From: Candidatus Oxydemutator sp.
GTDB taxonomy: Bacteria > Pseudomonadota > Gammaproteobacteria > Poriferisulfidales > Oxydemutatoraceae
DNA length: 64,000 nucleotides
Direction: 5' to 3'
Assembly: GCA_965203445.1 (NCBI GenBank)
Contig: OZ241883.1
Coordinates: 960,001 to 1,024,000, forward strand
Under the pieces are notes generated by a model. That model had not been told where the DNA came from and searched no databases. It was given only the letters and a program-made list of their open reading frames with translations. Within the stretch, counting starts at the first letter, position 1, and each line of letters starts with the position of its first letter. Both the position numbers and the translations under genes were made by a program. Below, piece by piece: positions 9,295 to 25,928 of this stretch.

Positions 9295-10191
9295 TCATAG
9301 ACTCGAGTGTGCTTCGGGGCGATCTGCTCCGGCCCCCCTTCGGGTGCCTTCCATCCAGTCGAGATTGCGCCCGACAACCAATTCGGTCATTTTCGCGTGG
9401 TGGGTGTTTCTCATCGGAATCGGCTTTGCCGCCAACCCGTGCCGGGACGCCATATCTTTCACTTCGTCGGCGTTGTCGTACGTCATGATGAAATCGCCCT
9501 TCAATTTGCAGCAGTGGTCAAAAAGCAATTCGTGATCCAGATCGCAGTATTTGTACAGCCGCTTGCCGGCTTTTTTGCCGCCCGCGGTGTAGGGAGGGTC
9601 AATGAAAAAGACGGCGTCGGTCTTCCGGTATTTTTTCAGCACCTCGAAAGCGTCCGTGTTCCGGAATTGCAGGCGTTCGCGTATATGGCCAATATCGCGC
9701 AATCTTCGGGCCAGCGTGGTCGGATACCAGCGCGACGATATTCCCTTCCCCGCTTCTCCGTTTTTCAGGAGGCCGGAACCCGCCGCCAGTATCCCTCCGT
9801 GGAACGTCCTGTTTTTGATGATGGTTCTGAACGCGCGCTCTTTGTTTGTTTGCGTTTTTTTATGCAATTCCCTGAGTGCATTTTCCCTGGTCATGACAAA
9901 GTTCGCAATGCGTTTTGCAAGCCACTCGGAGTCCCCGCCGACAACGGATTTCCAGACGGCGGCGATGTCTTCGTCCAACTCGACCATCAGGGCGGCTTCG
10001 ACGAGATTCTCGAAAACGGCGGTCAGCGACACAATCCCGCCGCCGGCAAACGGTTCCACGAGCAGCCGGGGCTTGTCCGGTTGACTGCGGATCCACCGAC
10101 GCAATTCGGGCACGAACCAAGTCTTTCCGCCAGGGTACCGAAAGGGGCTGCGCTGCGGCACCGAGGCGACGTTCACGGTTTTCTGCGACAA
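9295..10191 (-). CDS. Dam-like (D12 class) N6-adenine DNA methyltransferase, orphan; start uncertain (TTG 10191)
   Basis: SPFRYPGGK, EPFAGGG, FFIDPPY. Confidence 0.88.
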   Translation of the reverse strand: MSQKTVNVASVPQRSPFRYPGGKTWFVPELRRWIRSQPDKPRLLVEPFAGGGIVSLTAVFENLVEAALMVELDEDIAAVWKSVVGGDSEWLAKRIANFVMTRENALRELHKKTQTNKERAFRTIIKNRTFHGGILAAGSGLLKNGEAGKGISSRWYPTTLARRLRDIGHIRERLQFRNTDAFEVLKKYRKTDAVFFIDPPYTAGGKKAGKRLYKYCDLDHELLFDHCCKLKGDFIMTYDNADEVKDMASRHGLAAKPIPMRNTHHAKMTELVVGRNLDWMEGTRRGAGADRPEAHSSL

Positions 10192-10214
10192 GGGGATTAG
10201 ACAGGGGATTAGAC
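10191..10214. repeat. 12-bp tandem duplication AGGGGATTAGAC x2
   Basis: 10191-10202 and 10203-10214 identical. Confidence 0.9.
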
Positions 10215-10248
10215 GCTGTGGAACGGCGGCTGAGGCAGTGGGATATTT

Positions 10249-10360
10249 GGGAATTATATAGAATGTTGTGCAAGGCACCGCATCCCATCCATTTGACGTT
10301 TCACAGGCCGAGTAACCTCACCACCTCCACGTCCAGCAGCCCTATTCCCGAAGGCCAGTA
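10249..10360 (-). ncRNA. Predicted omega-RNA scaffold overlapping the tnpB A 3' end
   Basis: Stem-loops conserved with copy B, a compensatory pair and a possible pseudoknot with the terminal ATTCCC; boundaries inferred. Confidence 0.6.
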
Positions 10361-11474
10361 TATTCAATGCGGCATTCACATCCGCATTGTCCCGATGACC
10401 GCAGGCGCTACACTCGAAGACCGCCTGGGTCTTTCTGTTTTCTTTATCTACGTTCCCACATTTACTGCATGTCTGACTTGTGTATGCGGGGTTCACGTAG
10501 TTCGTATCCGTCTTGTAATCCAGACACTGATGAAACTTTCCCCAACAAGACGCCAGGATCACGCGGTTCAGTCCGGTCTTTGCACGGACATTCGTTCCAG
10601 GGTTATCCTTCGTTCCCTTGGCGCTTCTTGTTAGCCCCTGGTTGTTCAATTTCTCCAGGTGCACAAGAGAGTAGTTATCGGCCACTTGCCTCGATGTGCC
10701 ATGGCACCAGTTCCGTCTGATATGACGCAACTTGGCCTGCGCTTTCTGGTGTAACGATTGCGCACGCCTCCACCGGTTCGACGCCTTGATCCCCTTCTTG
10801 CGGTTCGGCCCCTGACGCCTTGCCATCATCCTCTGAGAACGCCTGACGCGCCGCTCATGCCCTGCCATATCCGGCATACGAAATACCTTTCCATCAGAAC
10901 AGGTTACCTGACTGACGTTACGGTCTATTCCTACAGAGTACCCTACTTTCGATACTTCGGCCTGTTCCACTTCGTATGTGATATACGCGTACCACTTGCC
11001 GCATTCCCGCTTGACCGTGCCGGATTTGGGCACGCCGTCCGGATACGGATTGTGGCCAAGCAGCAGCACCTCGCCTATCCTGGCGATGTAGAGATAACGT
11101 CCGTTCAAGCGGAACGCTCCGGTGCATAACGGAAAACTATCAGGGCGGACATACTTGGCGTGAAACCTCGGCAGGCCTCCCTCTTTCTTGAGGAATTGCC
11201 TGTACGCGGTCTCTATCGGCTTCAACGCTTGGCGCACTATCGGCATGGAATACTCCTGCAACCACGTATCGTCATCCCTGCGCAATGCCGTGAACCGCTT
11301 GCCAAGAGAATAAAACCGGTAATCGCACTCGCCATCCTCGGCATACTCGTCACGCAACTTGCCCACAAAATGGTTCCACACGTAACGGCACGCACCAGCC
11401 GTGCCCGCCAACTTGCGGGCCTTGACTTGAGTTCCTGCATGAACTCTATATCGAATTGTTCGATACATTTTCAT
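10254..11474 (-). CDS. tnpB: RNA-guided endonuclease TnpB (copy A)
   Basis: GACRYVWN, RuvC-I GIDRN, RuvC-II HLEKL, YTSQTCSKCG...CSACG zinc finger, RuvC-III NADVNAALNI; stop codon inside TIR. Confidence 0.95.
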   Translation of the reverse strand: MKMYRTIRYRVHAGTQVKARKLAGTAGACRYVWNHFVGKLRDEYAEDGECDYRFYSLGKRFTALRRDDDTWLQEYSMPIVRQALKPIETAYRQFLKKEGGLPRFHAKYVRPDSFPLCTGAFRLNGRYLYIARIGEVLLLGHNPYPDGVPKSGTVKRECGKWYAYITYEVEQAEVSKVGYSVGIDRNVSQVTCSDGKVFRMPDMAGHERRVRRSQRMMARRQGPNRKKGIKASNRWRRAQSLHQKAQAKLRHIRRNWCHGTSRQVADNYSLVHLEKLNNQGLTRSAKGTKDNPGTNVRAKTGLNRVILASCWGKFHQCLDYKTDTNYVNPAYTSQTCSKCGNVDKENRKTQAVFECSACGHRDNADVNAALNILAFGNRAAGRGGGEVTRPVKRQMDGMRCLAQHSI

Positions 11475-11580
11475 TTTCCCGCACAACATTCTATATAATT
11501 CCCCATTATATCAGTTTGGGCGGGTTAGAAACATTGACCTGCCGAACGGCGAGTTTCAAGATGAACGGGAGAGTTGTCCC

Positions 11581-12270
11581 ATGCGTCTATCAGTAATCGT
11601 TTTGGCCTTCGCCTGCCTTGCGGGTTGTGGAGGGTCTTCGGAAAACGGCGTGCGGCACGCCAGGCCCGACTCGTTCGTGGTCGTCAACGAGACCATGCCC
11701 GCCGCCATATTCGACGTCAGGTATTATTCCGCCGACAACTTTCTCGGCACCAGGGTGCGCGGCTATGCGGCCCCTTTGTGCATCCTCGCCGAACCGGCCG
11801 CCGCGGCTTTGCGGCGGGTGCAGCAGGAGCTTGGCGCGCGCGGCTATACCGTCAAGATTTTCGATTGTTTCCGCCCGCAGCGGGCGGTGGATCACTTCGT
11901 CGCGTGGGCGCAAGATGCAAGCGATACCAAAATGAAATCAGAGTATTACCCGAACGAGGAAAAGTCCCGGCTGATAGAGAAAGGTTACATCGCCGACCGC
12001 TCGGGCCACAGCAGGGGCGGCACGGTGGATCTGACGCTGGCACGCAAGGCCGACTCGAAAGAACTGGACATGGGAACCCCTTTCGACTACTTCGACACGC
12101 TGTCCAACACGGCCGATCCGCGCATCACCGAAGACCAGAAGAACAACCGCCTGTTGCTGAAGACAACCATGGAGAAACACGGGTTCGTCAACTACGACAA
12201 AGAATGGTGGCACTACACGCTCAAGGACGAACCGTACCCGGATACGTACTTCGACTTTCCGGTCGAATGA
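11581..12270 (+). CDS. ddpX: D-Ala-D-Ala dipeptidase (VanX/DdpX, M15D), lipoprotein
   Basis: LAGC lipobox; DCFRP, SGHSRGGTVD, EWWHY. Confidence 0.88.
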   Translation: MRLSVIVLAFACLAGCGGSSENGVRHARPDSFVVVNETMPAAIFDVRYYSADNFLGTRVRGYAAPLCILAEPAAAALRRVQQELGARGYTVKIFDCFRPQRAVDHFVAWAQDASDTKMKSEYYPNEEKSRLIEKGYIADRSGHSRGGTVDLTLARKADSKELDMGTPFDYFDTLSNTADPRITEDQKNNRLLLKTTMEKHGFVNYDKEWWHYTLKDEPYPDTYFDFPVE

Positions 12271-12343
12271 TATTGAAGGTGGCTTGGCTGACGCGCCTAT
12301 GGCCACCTTACCCAGTTTGTTGTATGAGGCCAGAAACATTATT

Positions 12344-12382
12344 TTCTTGCATTTTGGGAGCCAAACTCCCGAAATGCAAGAA
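12344..12382. promoter_or_regulatory. 17-bp-arm palindrome ending on the A of the ATPase start codon
   Basis: TTCTTGCATTTTGGGAG-CCAAA-CTCCCGAAATGCAAGAA (16/17). Confidence 0.65.
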
Positions 12383-13563
12383 TGATACCGCGTCTGCTCG
12401 AAAATCAAATCCTTGACGCTCTTCGCGCGATGCCCGTGGTCGCCATCCTGGGGCCGCGCCAAGTCGGCAAAACTACGCTTGCGCTTGCGATCACCCACGA
12501 CAAAGTCGGCAAAGAAGTCCTCTATCTGGATTTGGAGCGAGATTCCGATCTGGCCAAGCTGAATGATGCCGAGGCCTATCTCAAACGGTTCGGCAACCGT
12601 CTGCTGATCATTGACGAGGTGCAGAGAAAGCCGGATTTGTTCAGGGTGTTGCGCAGCCTCATTGACGCCAGAAGGCGCGCCGGCGAGAAAGGGGGGCTTT
12701 TGTTGTTGGGTTCGGCTGCCCGCGGACTGCTCCAGCATTCCTCTGAGACACTGGCGGGTCGCATTCGTTATTTGGAGTTGAGCACTCTCTCTGCGCTGGA
12801 AATGTATCGGGCGAAGGTTCCGGGTTTTACGATGGAAAATCTGTGGCTCAGAGGCGGTTTCCCCGATGGTTGTCTGGTGGCAAACGACGATGAGAGTTGG
12901 AACTGGCGTTCTGACTTTATTGCCTCTTACGTGGAACGTGACATGGCGTTGCTGGGGCCGAAGGTCCCGGCCACGCGAATGAGGCGCTTTTGGAGCATGT
13001 TGGCTCATTGGCACGGGCAGCAGATCAATCTGTCGTCGTTGGGCAAAAGCCTTGAAGTGGATCACAAAACCATCCGATCCTACCTGGACACACTGACCGA
13101 TTTTTACATGGTCAGACAGTTGCCCCCATGGTCGGGTAACACGAGAAAACGGCTGGTCAAATCGGCCAAGGTCTATATCCGGGACAGCGGCATATTGCAC
13201 CGCCTTTTGAATATCCCGGACTATGAAACCCTGTTGGGGCATCCGGCATTGGGCGCGAGTTGGGAAGGCTTTGTGTTGGAAAACATCCTCGTCGGTTTGT
13301 CCGATAAATGGCAATCCAGCTACTACAGAACGGCGGATCGGCATGAGCTTGATCTGGTTCTGGAAGGGCCGAAACGGGAGACCTGGGCTATAGAGGTAAA
13401 ACGTTCGACGGCGCCCAAAGTAAGCAGCCTCTATCATTCTGCGTGCGCTGAGATCGGGGCAACGAGAAAGGTGGTGGTTTATCCAGGCGCGGACAGATTC
13501 CCGCTGGCTGATAACGCCGAGGCCGTCGGCCTCAACGCATTTTTGTCTGATCTGGCGCGGTAA
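12382..13563 (+). CDS. AAA_14 ATPase with HTH and DUF4143 / PD-(D/E)xK C-terminus
   Basis: GPRQVGKT, IIDEVQ, SETLAGRI, ELDLV...AIEVK. Confidence 0.9.
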   Translation: MIPRLLENQILDALRAMPVVAILGPRQVGKTTLALAITHDKVGKEVLYLDLERDSDLAKLNDAEAYLKRFGNRLLIIDEVQRKPDLFRVLRSLIDARRRAGEKGGLLLLGSAARGLLQHSSETLAGRIRYLELSTLSALEMYRAKVPGFTMENLWLRGGFPDGCLVANDDESWNWRSDFIASYVERDMALLGPKVPATRMRRFWSMLAHWHGQQINLSSLGKSLEVDHKTIRSYLDTLTDFYMVRQLPPWSGNTRKRLVKSAKVYIRDSGILHRLLNIPDYETLLGHPALGASWEGFVLENILVGLSDKWQSSYYRTADRHELDLVLEGPKRETWAIEVKRSTAPKVSSLYHSACAEIGATRKVVVYPGADRFPLADNAEAVGLNAFLSDLAR

Positions 13564-13569
13564 CGACCG

Positions 13570-15087
13570 TCAGGCCAGAAACAAATCGTAGCCCGGGTTG
13601 CCCGACTCGTCCTGATAGGCGTAGGGCGATTCGGCCAGCAGCGTCCTGAACCCCGCCAGTTCGCCGTCCGGCACCTGTATTCCCGCCAGCACGCGCCCGT
13701 AGGCGGCGCCGTGGTTGCGGTAGTGGAACAGGCTGATGTTCCAGCGTCGCCCGCCGATGTACTCCAGGAACTCGAGCAGCGCGCCCGGTCTTTCGGGAAA
13801 CTGAAAGCGGCACAGGCGTTCGTCGTTCAGACGCCCGGCGCGGCCGCCGATCATGTGACGCAGGTGCAGTTTCGCCATCTCGTTGTCCGACAGGTCGGCG
13901 ACCGGGTAGCCGTTGTCGTGCAACGCCGTCAGCACCGCGTCTTTGTCTTGCGCGTCGTCGAATTGCAGGCCGACGAAAATACGCGCCCGCGCCTCGTCGG
14001 CGTAGCGGTAGTTGAACTCGGTGATCGTGCGCCTGCCGATGGTGCGGCAGAAATCGAGGAAGCTGCCGGGACGTTCCGGTATCGTCACCGCGAGCAGCGA
14101 TTCGGCGCCCTCGCCGATCTCGTAGCGTTCGACGACGTGCTTCAGGCGGTCGAAGTTGATATTGGCGCCGGAGGCGATTGCGACCAGCCCGCACCCGCGC
14201 AGCCGCTCGGCACGCGCGTATTTCTTCAGGCCCGCGATGGACAGTGCGCCGGCGGGCTCGAGCAGCGCGCGCGTGTCGTCGAAGTGGTCCTTGACCGCGG
14301 CGCAGATCTCGTCGGTCGTAACCAGCACGACGTCGTCCACCGTACGCCGCGCGACGCGGAAAGTCTCGTCGCCGATGCGCCGCACCGCGGCGCCGTCGGC
14401 GAACAATCCGACTTTGTCGAGCGTCACCGGTTCGCCACGGCGCAGCGCCTCGGCCAGCGTCGGCGCGTCCTCGGGTTCGACGCCGATGACGCGCACCTCA
14501 GGGCGCGCGTGTTTCAGGTAGGACGCGACCCCGGCGATCAGGCCGCCGCCGCCGACCGGCACGAACACCGCGTGCAGGTCGTCGCCGCATTGCCGGTGAA
14601 TCTCCTTGCCGACCGAACCCTGCCCCGCGATCACGTCGGCGTCGTCGTACGGATGGACGAAGGTCAGCGCGCGTTCGGCGGCGAGTTGCAATGCGTGCTC
14701 GCAGGCCTGATCGTAGGTGTCGCCGTGTTGGACGATGTCCGCGCCCAACAAGCGCACGGCCTCGACCTTGATACGCGGCGTCGTGCGCGGCATCACGATC
14801 AGCGCGCGTATGCCGAGCTGGCGCGCCGCCAGCGCCACGCCCTGCGCGTGGTTGCCGGCGGAGGCGGCGATGACGCCGGCGTGCTGCTCGCGTTGCGACA
14901 GGTGCGCGATCTTGTTATAGGCGCCGCGCAGCTTGAACGAGAACACCGGCTGCAAGTCCTCGCGCTTCAGGCGCACGTCGCAGCCGAGGCGCGCGCTCAG
15001 CTTGGGCGCCGCCTCCAGCGGCGTTACCCGCGCGACGTCATAGACCTTGCAGGCGTCTATCGCCCGGATGTAGTCGTAGGGGGGCAT
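13570..15087 (-). CDS. ilvA: Threonine ammonia-lyase, biosynthetic
   Basis: KREDLQPVFSFKLRGA, SAGNHAQG, two ACT-like domains (PERPG, FHYRNHG). Confidence 0.96.
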   Translation of the reverse strand: MPPYDYIRAIDACKVYDVARVTPLEAAPKLSARLGCDVRLKREDLQPVFSFKLRGAYNKIAHLSQREQHAGVIAASAGNHAQGVALAARQLGIRALIVMPRTTPRIKVEAVRLLGADIVQHGDTYDQACEHALQLAAERALTFVHPYDDADVIAGQGSVGKEIHRQCGDDLHAVFVPVGGGGLIAGVASYLKHARPEVRVIGVEPEDAPTLAEALRRGEPVTLDKVGLFADGAAVRRIGDETFRVARRTVDDVVLVTTDEICAAVKDHFDDTRALLEPAGALSIAGLKKYARAERLRGCGLVAIASGANINFDRLKHVVERYEIGEGAESLLAVTIPERPGSFLDFCRTIGRRTITEFNYRYADEARARIFVGLQFDDAQDKDAVLTALHDNGYPVADLSDNEMAKLHLRHMIGGRAGRLNDERLCRFQFPERPGALLEFLEYIGGRRWNISLFHYRNHGAAYGRVLAGIQVPDGELAGFRTLLAESPYAYQDESGNPGYDLFLA

Positions 15088-15111
15088 CGGTTTTTCAGCG
15101 AGAGTCTGAGA

Positions 15112-15119
15112 AAACATAA
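15112..15119. repeat. 8-bp target-site duplication AAACATAA (second copy 16432-16439)
   Basis: Identical 8-mers directly abut both TIRs of element B. Confidence 0.92.
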
Positions 15120-15160
15120 GGGAATTATATATCTAAATCTACAGAATAGTGGTGAAGTAC

Positions 15161-15188
15161 TTGATTTTCTATAGGAATATGGTATGAT
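15161..15188 (+). promoter_or_regulatory. Putative sigma70 promoter of tnpB B (likely leaderless mRNA)
   Basis: TTGATT-N16-TATGAT with TGn extension, 8 nt before ATG 15197. Confidence 0.5.
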
Positions 15189-15196
15189 GTTTTGTG

Positions 15197-16426
15197 ATGA
15201 AAGTCCATAGAACAATCCGGTATAGGTTGCATCCCGGTACGCAGGCCAAAGCCCGCAAGTTGGCGGGATTGGCGGGGGCGTGCAGGTTCGTATGGAATCA
15301 TTTCGTAGGGAAGTTAAGGGACGAGTATCTGGCATATGGATGCTGTAAGCCTTGGTATTTTACATTGGGCAAGCAGTTCACTCTGTTACGTCGCCACTGT
15401 GAACCCTGGTTGCAGGAATACTCGGCCAACATAGTAAAGGCATCTTTGAAACAGTTGGAAACGACGTACAAGCAGTTTTATAAGAAAGAGGGCGGATTGC
15501 CGAGGTTCCATGCAAAATATATGCATCCCGATAGTTTTCCCTTGGTGACGGGGACGTTCCATCTGAAAGGCCGTTACTTGCACATCGCCAAGATAGGCGA
15601 GGTGCTGTTGCTTGGCCACTATCCCTATCCGGGCGGCGTGCCGAAGTCCGGCACGGTCAAGCGGGAATGCGGCAGGTGGTATGCGTATATCACGTATGAA
15701 GTGGAACAATCCGAAGCATTGAAACCTGTAAGAGAAGTCGGCATAGACCGCAACGTCGGTCAGGTAACATTATCCGACGGGACGATGTATCGTATGCCGG
15801 ATACGGCAAAACATGAACGTCGCGTCAGGCGTTATCAGAAGAAGATGGCTAGGCGACAGGGGCCGAACCGCAAGAAAGGGATCAAGGCGTCGAACCGGTG
15901 GAAGCGCGCACAGTTGCTTTATCAGAAGGCACAGGCCACGTTGCGACACGTCAGACAGAATTGGTGCCATGGCGTATCGAGGGAAGTGGCCGATAAATAC
16001 TCCCTTGTGCACCTGGAGCAGTTGAACAATCAAGGGATGACAAGAAGCGCCAAGGGAACAAAGGAGGAACCCGGAACCAACGTTCGCGCGAAGAGCGGCT
16101 TGAACCGCGTGATCCTGGCGTCATGCTGGGGCAAGTTTCACCAGTGCCTGGACTACAAGACGAATACGAATTACATAAACCCCGCATACACAAGTCAGAC
16201 ATGCAATAAATGCGGGCACATTGACAAGAACAACAGAAAGACTCAGGCGGTATTTATCTGTACCGCTTGCGGTCATCGGGATAACGCGGATGTTAATGCC
16301 GCGTTGAATATACTGGCCTTCGGGAATGGGGCTACTGGACGTGGAGGTGATGACGTTAGTCGGCCTGTGAAGCGTCAAATGGATACCAGAAATCAACAAG
16401 AAAGTCTTGTAGATTTAGGTATATAA
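15197..16426 (+). CDS. tnpB: RNA-guided endonuclease TnpB (copy B)
   Basis: GIDRN / HLEQL / NADVNAALNI RuvC D-E-D intact; CNKCG...CTACG zinc finger; stop codon inside TIR. Confidence 0.95.
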   Translation: MKVHRTIRYRLHPGTQAKARKLAGLAGACRFVWNHFVGKLRDEYLAYGCCKPWYFTLGKQFTLLRRHCEPWLQEYSANIVKASLKQLETTYKQFYKKEGGLPRFHAKYMHPDSFPLVTGTFHLKGRYLHIAKIGEVLLLGHYPYPGGVPKSGTVKRECGRWYAYITYEVEQSEALKPVREVGIDRNVGQVTLSDGTMYRMPDTAKHERRVRRYQKKMARRQGPNRKKGIKASNRWKRAQLLYQKAQATLRHVRQNWCHGVSREVADKYSLVHLEQLNNQGMTRSAKGTKEEPGTNVRAKSGLNRVILASCWGKFHQCLDYKTNTNYINPAYTSQTCNKCGHIDKNNRKTQAVFICTACGHRDNADVNAALNILAFGNGATGRGGDDVSRPVKRQMDTRNQQESLVDLGI

Positions 16427-16431
16427 TTCCC
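16313..16431 (+). ncRNA. Predicted omega-RNA scaffold overlapping the tnpB B 3' end
   Basis: GCCTT-CGGGAAT-GGGGC hairpin, GACG...CGTC stem, terminal hairpin 16383-16422, terminal ATTCCC; boundaries inferred. Confidence 0.6.
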
Positions 16432-16675
16432 AAACATAATACTGTAAAGGCCTTATATTTAAGTGCCGGGCTTTCCTCGGTTACTCTGGTATCCCCCGTC
16501 ATCCTCCGCGAAAGTGGGAACTTTAGTCTGGCCATTCTCGCCCCCGAACCTTCGCGGGCTATTTCCGATTGTTTTTAAGCCATTGATATAGAATTATTAT
16601 TTACGAATTTATTCAATAAGCAAAGTGAACTTCTCTTATATTGACTTTTCTTGGACTATCCACAGAATTGCTCCC

Positions 16676-18136
16676 GTGGAACTGATTCCCGCAGAGCAGT
16701 ACCGGGAGCGCATTTGCGCCGAAAATCCATGGTGGGATGAGGCGTCTCCTGGTACCGACAAAGCATTTCGGGATATGCGCCCGCGTGCCTATCTCGATTC
16801 CTTTGCCAAATTGGTGGAGGCAAGGGACGTGCGTCGCGCCGTCGTGCTGATGGGGCCGCGTCGCGTCGGCAAGACTGTTTTGCTGCAACACGTGATTCAG
16901 CGCTTGTTGGACGACGGTGTCCCGTCGCAAGCTATTGCCTACTTATCGTTGGACCAGCCCTTGTATGCCAACCGCTCCATTGAGGAACTCGTCGGCCATG
17001 CTCAAGGAGGTGGCACGCCGCCGAGCTCGCAACCGACTTTCCCGTCGTTGCGTGAAATCCAGTATCTGTTCCTGGATGAAATACAGTACCTGCGCGAATG
17101 GGAGCGTCATCTCAAGATATTCGTCGACGACCACCCGCGCATCAAATGCGTCGTTTCCGGGTCGGCGGCCGCGGCTCTGCGTTTGAAGAGCATCGAGTCC
17201 GGCACCGGACGCTTTACCGATTTTCTTCTGCCGCCACTGACGTTCTACGAGTTTATGGATTTACAGGGTATGGGCGACGTCGTCGTGCGCGAACGGCAGG
17301 GATGGTTTTGCGCGGACATTGACGCCCTCAACGAGCACTTCGTTCGCTACGTCAACATGGGCGGCTACCCTGAGGTGATTTTCTCCGAGAGTATTCGGAA
17401 AGACGTGAGACGCTACGTTCGCAGCGACATCATAGACAAGGTATTGCTGCGCGACTTGCCGAGCCTCTATGGCATCCGCGACATCCAGGATCTCAATTCG
17501 CTGTTTATGACCCTTGCCTGGCACACGGCGCAGGAAGTATCGTTGCAGGGGTTGTCGCAACATTCCGGTGTTTCCAGCCCGACGATCAAGAATTATCTGG
17601 AGTACCTGGAGGCCGCTTTCCTGATCAGGATAGTCCATCGTATTGATCGCAACGCCAAGCATTTCAAACGCGCCAATTACTTCAAGGTGCATTTGACCAC
17701 CCCGTCCATGCGCAGTGCTCTTTTCGGCCCGATAGAATCGAACGGCCGGGACATGGGCGCGCTGGTGGAAACGGCGATATTCTCGCAGTGGTTTCATGCG
17801 GACCTGGAGTTGCGTTACGCGCGTTGGCAGAGCGGCGAAGTTGACATCGTCTGTTTGGACGAGCGCTACAAGCCTCGCTGGTGCGTGGAAGTCAAATGGT
17901 CTGACTCCGTTGTTTCCCGGCCCCGCAAGACGACTCCTATCCGGTCTTTTCTCAAGACCCATCCCGGCGTCGAGGCCGCGTTCACGACGCGCTCGATGGA
18001 GGGAAAGTTGTCGCTTGCGCCGAACGTGACGGTGGATTGTCTGCCCGCGAGCGTTTATTGTTACTTGGCGGGTTTCCACGCCGTCGGCGACCGCTCGCGC
18101 GACCTGGTGTTGGGGGTGCGCGAAGGAACCCGCTGA
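16676..18136 (+). CDS. AAA_14 ATPase with HTH and nuclease-like C-terminus (DUF4143-related)
   Basis: ENPWW, GPRRVGKT, FLDEIQY, ESGTGRF, GEVDIV...CVEVKW. Confidence 0.88.
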   Translation: MELIPAEQYRERICAENPWWDEASPGTDKAFRDMRPRAYLDSFAKLVEARDVRRAVVLMGPRRVGKTVLLQHVIQRLLDDGVPSQAIAYLSLDQPLYANRSIEELVGHAQGGGTPPSSQPTFPSLREIQYLFLDEIQYLREWERHLKIFVDDHPRIKCVVSGSAAAALRLKSIESGTGRFTDFLLPPLTFYEFMDLQGMGDVVVRERQGWFCADIDALNEHFVRYVNMGGYPEVIFSESIRKDVRRYVRSDIIDKVLLRDLPSLYGIRDIQDLNSLFMTLAWHTAQEVSLQGLSQHSGVSSPTIKNYLEYLEAAFLIRIVHRIDRNAKHFKRANYFKVHLTTPSMRSALFGPIESNGRDMGALVETAIFSQWFHADLELRYARWQSGEVDIVCLDERYKPRWCVEVKWSDSVVSRPRKTTPIRSFLKTHPGVEAAFTTRSMEGKLSLAPNVTVDCLPASVYCYLAGFHAVGDRSRDLVLGVREGTR

Positions 18137-25383: not shown

Positions 25384-25928
25384 ACAGTCCCCCCCGGCTC
25401 CAGGACATCTGTTGACGCAGATGCCCTTGGCGACTGTTCATTGGTGTTGGTTTGGGACAACGAACAGCGCAGATAAGCGTAGCACGCCTTCTGATGCTTT
25501 GTCATTACTCCCTTCCCCTTTGAAAGCCGATGTGCGGTCAAGGCGACCCGCGCGTGTGAAACATCACGCGTGATGGGGCGCAAACCAAAGTCGTCGCCAT
25601 GTGCGACGGGGCAATGCTTGGGTTCGGTGTTGGAGCATTGCAGGAGAGCCGATCAGGAACCGAAATCAGGGAGAGCGCCACTGCTCCTGAAACAATGGGT
25701 GCAATGTCGAAGTGAGGGCGTAGATGACAGAGGATTGATTGATATCATCCATGCGTTGCAATCCTCTGGCGATGAGGTGGGAATTTACGTCGTAGAAAAA
25801 GTCATACACGTCCTGCATGGCCATTTGGAAATCCTGCCAACGCAGATCGTACGGCAACCCAGGTTTGGCGTTGAACTTGGAAATATCAACGGTGTTGCGT
25901 CGTATGGCCATAGCAACGGGTGCTCGCC

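Follow-up and report, generated by a model that had tools for sequence, protein, structure and literature searches.

A transposase-less tnpB cassette with IS1595-type ends and a predicted guide-RNA scaffold in Candidatus Oxydemutator

The element and its tnpB gene

The genome of Candidatus Oxydemutator sp. considered here is a single contig (OZ241883.1) of 2,378,814 bp with a G+C content of 63.6%, rated 100% complete, and the stretch of 64,000 bp between its positions 960,001 and 1,024,000 is called the window. The window holds an element of 1312 bp next to ilvA with a single gene, tnpB, which is bounded by terminal inverted repeats (TIRs) and by a perfect target site duplication (TSD) of the 8-mer AAACATAA (Table 1). 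The only mismatch between its two ends is at position 13, which is T in one and C in the other. An earlier reading, made from the sequence alone, had described the element with its length, its ends at 23/24 identity, its duplication and its one intact gene. It had also pointed out a second tnpB element at 10249-11503 with a perfect 23-bp TIR and the same outer 12 bp, as well as the absence of any transposase from the window, and all of these features were found again.

The only long open reading frame (ORF) of the element runs from 15194 to 16426 on the plus strand and encodes 410 aa. The protein matches the Pfam models HTH_OrfB_IS605, OrfB_IS605 and Cas12f1-like_TNB, scores 214.6 bits with the NCBIfam model guided_TnpB (NF040570, cut-off 100), and matches the TnpB chains 8h1j and 8bf8 of the PDB over residues 9-375 at E = 5e-19. 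Aligned with solved TnpB-like chains, the catalytic residues D185, E275 and D366 fall on conserved motifs, and in 11 paralogues none of the three varies. The zinc finger is formed by two CxxC pairs, of which C337, C340 and C359 are invariant in the same set and C356 is nearly so. Judged by residue conservation and profile matches, the product is a TnpB in which the RuvC D-E-D and the zinc finger are intact, which bears out what the sequence-only reading had said of it. A full-length ORF is kept in 13 of the 14 tnpB copies of the genome, and the TnpBs fall into two clades with a mutual identity of 55-65%.

Table 1. Features of the tnpB element and its surroundings (window coordinates)
Feature	Position	Strand	Basis or remark
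Second tnpB cassette	10249-11503	-	tnpB at 10254-11489; perfect 23-bp TIR; 8-bp flanks agree at 4/8
ilvA	13570-15087	-	TIGR01124, 758.9 bits against a cut-off of 411.3; start placed by same-genus alignment
Proposed TAM-like position, AGA, -11 to -9 from left end	15109-15111	+	flank bias; function putative
Left TSD copy AAACATAA	15112-15119	.	window sequence; identical 8-mer at right
Left TIR GGGAATTATATATCTAAATCTACA	15120-15143	+	23/24 against right end
Promoter-like site, TTGATT, 16-nt spacer, TATGAT with TG, upstream of tnpB	15161-15188	+	one site against 1.7 expected
tnpB	15197-16426	+	likely start ATG 15197; open from GTG 15194; TAA stop within right TIR
Structured RNA of omegaRNA-scaffold type (predicted)	16285-16431	+	overlaps tnpB 3' end and stops at last base of element; covariation in 48 elements
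Internal GGGAAT, predicted to pair with terminal ATTCCC (16426-16431)	16332-16337	+	helix 3, 97.2% paired
Right TIR	16408-16431	-	reverse complement GGGAATTATATACCTAAATCTACA; also 3' arm of last RNA hairpin
Right TSD copy AAACATAA	16432-16439	.	perfect 8-bp match to left copy
Predicted guide segment, 8-mer of the TSD followed by about 12 nt of flank	16432-16451	+	usual TnpB geometry together with the TAM-like position

Copies, resident transposase and empty sites

The outer 12-mer of the ends, GGGAATTATATA, occurs four times in the window when one mismatch is allowed, against 0.04 occurrences expected, and none of 100 shuffles reaches four. The four occurrences are the two ends of the element at 15120-16431 and the two ends of the cassette at 10249-11503. 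The genome as a whole contains 25 exact copies and none of the reversed control pattern. Pairing of these copies in inverted orientation delimits 12 full-length tnpB cassettes (1252-1377 bp), a truncated one of 786 bp, two miniatures without cargo of 163 and 180 bp, and one element of 2616 bp. The TNB domain of TnpB has 14 matches in the genome, all of them between ends of the GGGAATTATATA type; 13 were located by the pairing and the 14th, at 1431141-1432433 with a TSD agreeing at 6/8 positions, by manual reading. Every tnpB of the genome is thus bounded in the way that the sequence-only reading had proposed, and the duplication has the expected length of 8 bp, being perfect in eight of the 12 paired full-length cassettes and agreeing at 7/8 positions in two, 6/8 in one and 4/8 in one. 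The target 8-mers are AT-rich in a genome of about 64% GC. Inner TIR sequences vary among the cassettes and the outer 12 bp are common to all subfamilies. The two miniatures (113341-113503 and 757576-757755) have flanks that agree at 5/8 and 2/8 positions, which is no match for a duplication, and many solo ends lie elsewhere in the genome.

As tnpB is the usual accessory gene of the IS200/IS605 and IS607 families, the element might be an ordinary member of one of these, of the IS1341 type or IS607, mobilised by a TnpA of the Y1 or serine class, its TIRs and TSD being incidental. The protein does score with the corresponding NCBIfam models, IS200_TnpB (152.9 bits) and IS607_TnpB (97.1 bits), though both values are far under the cut-offs of 425 and 350. 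Elements of these families have neither inverted repeats nor a duplication, according to the sections on them in PMC13565253 and PMC3119063, whereas TIRs and TSDs are present here, the latter perfect in most of the paired cassettes and reduced to a single 8-mer in empty sites. Furthermore, the complete genome has no match to the Y1_Tnp (HUH) domain and none to the Resolvase (serine recombinase) domain, in searches that were positive in 6/14 and 12/14 control genomes, respectively, so that no tnpA of IS605-type origin accounts for the boundaries. Finally, the same ends flank an IS1595 transposase in this genome and in 11 elements of related genomes. An IS605 or IS607 origin is extremely improbable, and in this genome it is refuted, short of a divergent HUH or serine enzyme that escapes both Pfam models.

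The domain DDE_Tnp_IS1595 has exactly one match above cut-off in the genome, and this match lies inside the 2616-bp element (1978350-1980965; locus L081), about 1 Mb from the window element. The transposase of 314 aa scores 205.9 bits with NF033547 (cut-off 75), matches PF12762 over the whole length and has the zinc ribbon PF12760. Its element has TIRs with an identity of 26/30 and the TSD ATCAGAAA, perfect at 8/8, and its ends, GGGAATTATATACTTAAATCTACAA, agree by eye with the right end of the window element at 24/25 positions and with the left end at 22/25. A transposase of the IS1595 family with the same ends, as the sequence-only reading had anticipated, is therefore present in the same genome. 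A second, diverged transposase of the IS1595 type is left as a truncated fragment of 167 aa at 512990-513433. The other gene of the 2616-bp element encodes a fusion of an N6/N4 DNA methylase with an HNH nuclease domain (436 aa), with homologues 42-62% identical in three related elements (L040, L043 and L048); an orphan methylase-HNH protein that travels on an insertion sequence (IS) may merit interest in itself.

The window element is best explained, with a probability of roughly 0.8, as a non-autonomous derivative of the IS1595 family which carries tnpB and a scaffold and which is moved in trans by the resident transposase. It has the TIRs and the 8-bp TSD of such elements, and it is filed as a derivative and not as an autonomous member because it encodes no DDE_Tnp_IS1595 transposase of its own. 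The cassette would have kept only the two inverted ends that the IS1595 transposase recognises, the single DDE transposase of the 2616-bp element would mobilise all cassettes in trans, and each insertion would duplicate 8 bp of an AT-rich target. The IS1595-like shell and the mobilisation in trans had both been put forward in the sequence-only reading, and the shared ends, the duplications, the empty sites and the resident transposase support them. The cassettes could also have been moved by another enzyme, for example one from incoming DNA, as there is only one transposase copy for 14 cassettes with differing inner TIRs, and the truncated fragment at 512990-513433 belongs to a second transposase of this type. 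This is improbable in view of the 24/25 agreement between the end of the resident element and the right end of the window element, the outer 12 bp common to all subfamilies, and a pair of cassettes at separate loci which are identical at 1370/1371 positions and which imply movement within the lineage.

The window element itself is identical to its closest copy at 1276/1312 positions. Same-genus genomes contain empty alleles with a single 8-mer for this element and for two other cassettes, as had been predicted. For the cassette at 25458, both G001 and G003 read ...GG TTTTTTTG ATA[A/C]CAT..., with one 8-mer and homologous flanks; for the cassette at 1720176, the two read ...TGTG CTATTCTG CGCGCCATGTT..., with the identical 8-mer present once. 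The joint predicted for the window element, AGAAAACATAA-TACTGTAAA, agrees without gaps with AGAAAGCATGATACTGTAAA of G003 at 18/20 positions, and the agreement with G001 is 15/17. One homologous 8-mer, AAGCATGA, is joined there gaplessly to the right flank, at roughly 20 bp upstream of the start of ilvA. When contigs of four DNA runs were compared with the window, one from run X4 was seen to join 15100 to 16563, which is compatible with an empty site in a relative and is not base-exact. Two further cassettes gave no usable comparison: the 200-250 bp flanking the one at 174463 are absent from the same-genus genomes, and around the one at 2133905 the intergenic DNA of these genomes is too diverged.

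The transposase is found in 28/53 genomes of the order (E <= 1e-20). Of the 30 transposase loci examined, 11 contain a complete element that is bounded by GGGAA[TC]TAT... ends and flanked by a perfect 8-bp TSD. The outer 9-12 bp of the ends are common to these 11 autonomous elements, which comprise simple ISs (1271-1410 bp) as well as forms of 2.5-2.9 kb. A comparison of the ORFs from 120 aa upwards covered seven transposase elements, and in three of them the extra gene is a methylase match. Just upstream of one autonomous element (genome G015, L044, positions 1036-1240) lie four tandem end-like motifs with a spacing of 68 bp.

The TnpB clade is found in 19/53 genomes of the order (E <= 1e-60), and also in metagenome-assembled genomes (MAGs) of Arenicellales, Candidatus Porisulfidus, Candidatus Oxydemutatoraceae, Thiotrichales, Chromatiales, other Gammaproteobacteria and one member of Opitutales. 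Both ends lie within three mismatches of the 12-mer at 35/58 near-full-length MAG loci, the flanks of which agree at 8/8 positions in 14 and at 7/8 in six. Forty-eight further loci of the order, some of them duplicate MAG loci, include 39 with paired ends, 16 of these with flanks at 8/8 and five at 7/8. A metagenome scan yielded four loci, of which three, with TnpBs 42-43% identical, have ends of the same type and one of these a perfect TSD, so that TIRs enclose the TnpBs of this clade in other taxa as well, even at this level of protein identity. Since two TnpB clades that are 55-65% identical share these ends, as do several gammaproteobacterial orders, the association of TnpB with IS1595-type ends is old and broad. 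The sequence-only reading had TnpB captured by an IS1595-like transposon; the host shell stands, and the recent event that the wording implied does not, for the association was not formed by a recent capture in this genome. More remote TnpBs are also seen: in genus g7 (for example L180) there are two tiers at about 210-350 bits with ORFs of about 430-470 aa, abundant in family f2, and the one TnpB of this type that was inspected has the end-like sequence GGGACTTATACA directly after the gene. A frame of 886 aa in G048 was considered as a TnpB fusion and rejected, as behind the TnpB domains there is only unassigned read-through, up to the end of the contig.

Several observations weigh against the explanation as a trans-mobilised IS1595 derivative. 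Some cassettes have no fully matching TSD, including the second element of the window, at which the flanks agree at only 4/8 positions, a fact absent from the sequence-only reading. Among the MAG loci with both ends, 15/35 have flanks that agree at 6/8 positions or fewer. Of all 58 MAG loci, 23 lack one or both ends at a tolerance of three mismatches, in most cases with the right end present and the left end not recognisable. No element with both a transposase and tnpB was seen among the seven transposase elements with ORFs compared (0/7), and the link between transposase and cassettes therefore rests on the shared ends and the TSD length. Among the Arenicellales, many copies (such as L092-L094, L097 and L154) have a well-kept right end by the 3' end of tnpB and no recognisable left end within 400 bp. 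A right end kept alone would fit retention for the RNA after loss of mobility.

The gene next to the window element, which the sequence-only reading had called ilvA, is well over the cut-off of its model. Its start codon is only 24 bp from the left TSD copy, and the cassette therefore lies within the upstream region of ilvA; the native upstream region has been pushed 1.3 kb away (window 15087-15120). The cassette at 2133905 likewise adjoins a start codon. A TATAAT reads outward from the element end near ilvA, 4 nt off the terminus, and the promoter scan gave no promoter-like site on the minus strand. The site listed upstream of tnpB is not above chance when compared with shuffled sequences and is a weak lead. 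Adjoining the second cassette is an ORF (9295-10278, minus strand) with a weak match to Dam-family methylases (44.8 bits, under cut-off), the longest open frame of which enters the cassette end by 30 bp.

Predicted guide RNA and oriented flank bias

The 3' end of tnpB overlaps a predicted RNA structure, and the gene terminates within the right inverted repeat, at the TAA of ...TATATAATTCCC. The structure was obtained from an alignment of the last 240 nt of 48 cassettes by RNAalifold, with two hairpins added by eye. It consists of 30 pairs in 8 helices, with 95.4% of the cells paired across the 48 cassettes, and compensatory changes occur at 16 pairs (146 cells), a value that 0/500 shuffles reach. 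Slid controls are 33-49% paired, a comparison that is tilted towards the structure, as this was derived in part from the same sequences. TIR positions 11-13 covary with an upstream AUAC or AUAG (columns 315-317 against 353-355), and helices 1, 2 and 4-7 covary up to 150 nt inside tnpB. Helix 3 has little covariation because both of its sides, AUUCCC and GGGAAU, are nearly invariant. When the sequence 16215-16431 (217 nt) is folded by itself, the same helices form at -71.5 kcal/mol with z = -3.39. No Rfam family matches at E up to 1 over 9800-16900 and no RNA run is listed for 14700-16900, and both results count against the guide RNA. The predicted RNA would look like the guide-RNA scaffold of a TnpB that ends at the element boundary, and the cargo of the cassette would accordingly comprise both tnpB and a structured scaffold which shares sequence with the gene's 3' end and stops exactly at the right terminus.

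It could be argued that the shell belongs to IS1595 and that tnpB is inert cargo without a guide RNA and without a part in the spread of the element, the 3' structure serving transposase binding or consisting of DNA hairpins. The hairpin at the right end is compatible with DNA no less than with RNA, and elements of the IS1595 type in this lineage do carry unrelated passengers such as the methylase-HNH gene. Binding of a transposase to its ends does not, however, explain helices that covary up to 150 nt inside a gene. In addition, the full-length state of 13/14 copies and the invariance of catalytic and zinc-finger residues across paralogues with 55-65% identity do not fit inert cargo, and neither does a flank bias that follows the orientation of tnpB. 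The inert-cargo explanation is hence unlikely.

This bias was determined on 49 unique insertions with flanks agreeing at 7/8 positions or better (10 from this genome, 39 from others), oriented by tnpB. At position -9, just 5' of the TSD on the side of the tnpB start, there are 27 G, 19 A, three T and no C, which amounts to purines in 46/49, while the mirrored position on the right side has purines in 21/49 (Fisher p = 4.8e-8). The preferred base differs between subfamilies of ends: those with C at repeat position 13 (C-type) have G at -9 in 24/32 cases and those with G at this position (G-type) have A in 13/14, mostly as TA (p = 2.8e-6, an optimistic value, since the subfamilies are related and independence is overstated). 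In an empty site the -9 base stands directly before the 8-mer and the right flank, the same sequence that comes after the right end when the site is occupied. For a guide copied from the flank, this is exactly where the target-adjacent motif (TAM) of TnpB would lie. The occupied right junction has the terminal C of the element in the place of the TAM, and C is the base never seen at -9.

That the oriented purine at -9 acts as a TnpB TAM has, on the strength of these flanks, a little under an even chance. An extended scheme, which we put forward tentatively and hold to be possible but short of probable, has the 8-mer of the TSD as the first 8 nt of the guide, the G or TA of the left flank as the TAM and only a precisely emptied site as a substrate for cutting. 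The RNA would be made and loaded into TnpB with a guide composed of the duplicated 8-mer and the flank, the TAM would be the left-flank purine just before the 8-mer, and the nuclease would recognise the emptied site only, never the occupied site with C at the TAM place. If true, this would be RNA-guided homing fitted to a TSD-making bacterial transposon, and the TAM would be enriched by the survival of insertions and not by target choice of the transposase.

The alternative is that the purine at -9 reflects target choice by the transposase or local context, such as a boundary between GC-rich and AT-rich sequence. Targets are indeed AT-rich 8-mers in a genome of 64% GC. A TAM-like motif of one to three bases is very short and has less information than published TnpB TAMs. 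The control of 12 transposase-bearing elements is small and not clearly different from the cassettes, with A in eight, C in eight, G in six and T in two when both ends are pooled and purines in 9/12 on one side when the elements are oriented by the transposase gene (hand tallies). These points tell against the TAM. A two-fold symmetric transpososome, on the other hand, should mirror its preference, and the mirrored position has 21/49 purines against 46/49. Moreover, the preferred base shifts with the subfamily, G for C-type and TA for G-type ends, and C, the occupant of the occupied right junction, is found in 0/49 at -9. Target choice or context has a substantial chance of being correct, if one below even.

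Relation to known TnpB carriers

TnpB, from which Cas12 descends, itself serves as a tool for genome editing. To our knowledge, IS605 and IS607 elements, whose excision leaves no scar, are the only ones in which the biology of TnpB is worked out. A full-text literature search for TnpB with IS1595, ISNwi1 or ISXO2, in which papers on IS1595 were judged by title or abstract, gave no description of tnpB as an IS1595 passenger, and we know of none. Elements of the ISNwi1 group of IS1595 reportedly include forms with passenger genes. By eye, GGGAATTAT fits ggnnatTAT, which we take to be the end consensus of this group in ISfinder, and the group assignment is a lead. The autonomous elements described here resemble the ISNwi1 group in the zinc-ribbon DDE_Tnp_IS1595 transposase, the GG..AT TAT ends, the 8-bp TSDs and the passengers; the window element differs in being without a transposase.

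In this last respect it is like mobile insertion cassettes and MITEs, which have no transposase, keep the ends of their parent IS and make the same duplication, and the two cargo-less miniatures of 163 and 180 bp with these ends belong to the same comparison. Here, by contrast, the cargo is a nuclease of mobile elements with its own predicted RNA, and cassettes outnumber the parent by 14:1. The IS1341 group of IS200/IS605 shares with the window element the lone tnpB and a 3' guide-RNA scaffold, here predicted, that reaches the right boundary. Its members are without TIRs and TSD and need a Y1 TnpA, whereas no Y1 enzyme is present here. Fanzor genes are said to occur in eukaryotic transposons with TIRs and TSDs.

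The closest bacterial parallel comes from Altae-Tran et al. 2023, PNAS (PMC10691335). In the passages concerned, this work describes branches of TnpB associated with DDE transposases (DDE-1 to DDE-6) and with inverted terminal repeats, tnpB genes whose 3' ends lie no more than 250 bp from the end of the transposon, and solo TnpBs whose ends are nearly identical to those of transposase-bearing elements and which are read as mobilised in trans. The placement of TnpB inside a TIR transposon, the position of the tnpB 3' end near the transposon end and the solo forms are alike in the two cases. What sets the present case apart from these passages is that no element examined here carries both the transposase and tnpB. 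In the main text, IS630 is named and IS1595 never; a 2026 review (PMC13565253), in the section concerned, lists ISL2, IS630 and IS1031 and states that the rarity of TnpB in prokaryotic DDE transposons needs explaining. The sequence-only reading had set the novelty of the locus too high, since DDE-linked TnpBs and trans-mobilised solo TnpBs were already described in the cited passages of 2023 (PMC10691335). The kind of element has thus been known from that year, and IS1595 may be a new host family of that kind.

Fanzor elements with TIRs and TSDs, which the sequence-only reading had cited as a eukaryotic parallel, are alike, in the descriptions at hand, in having a TnpB-type nuclease as the sole gene of a non-autonomous element of the cut-and-paste type. 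According to the relevant part of Yoon et al. 2023 (PMC10711439), the RNA scaffold of a Fanzor element includes the inverted repeat, and the RNA continues past the duplication, while scaffold and guide are both predictions in the bacterial case. In the same account the short TSD is fixed and absorbed into the scaffold. Here the host is bacterial and the 8-bp TSD is variable, and it would therefore have to belong to the guide.

The additions made by the present locus to this picture are a covarying predicted scaffold that incorporates the inverted repeat and an oriented, TAM-like base. Its value lies in an unusually complete natural and apparently active system, with an autonomous element, 14 cassettes of two clades, many of them intact and some near-identical, miniatures, empty alleles and a clear prediction for guide and TAM. 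Such a system opens the question of how an RNA-guided nuclease would benefit a transposon that makes a target site duplication.

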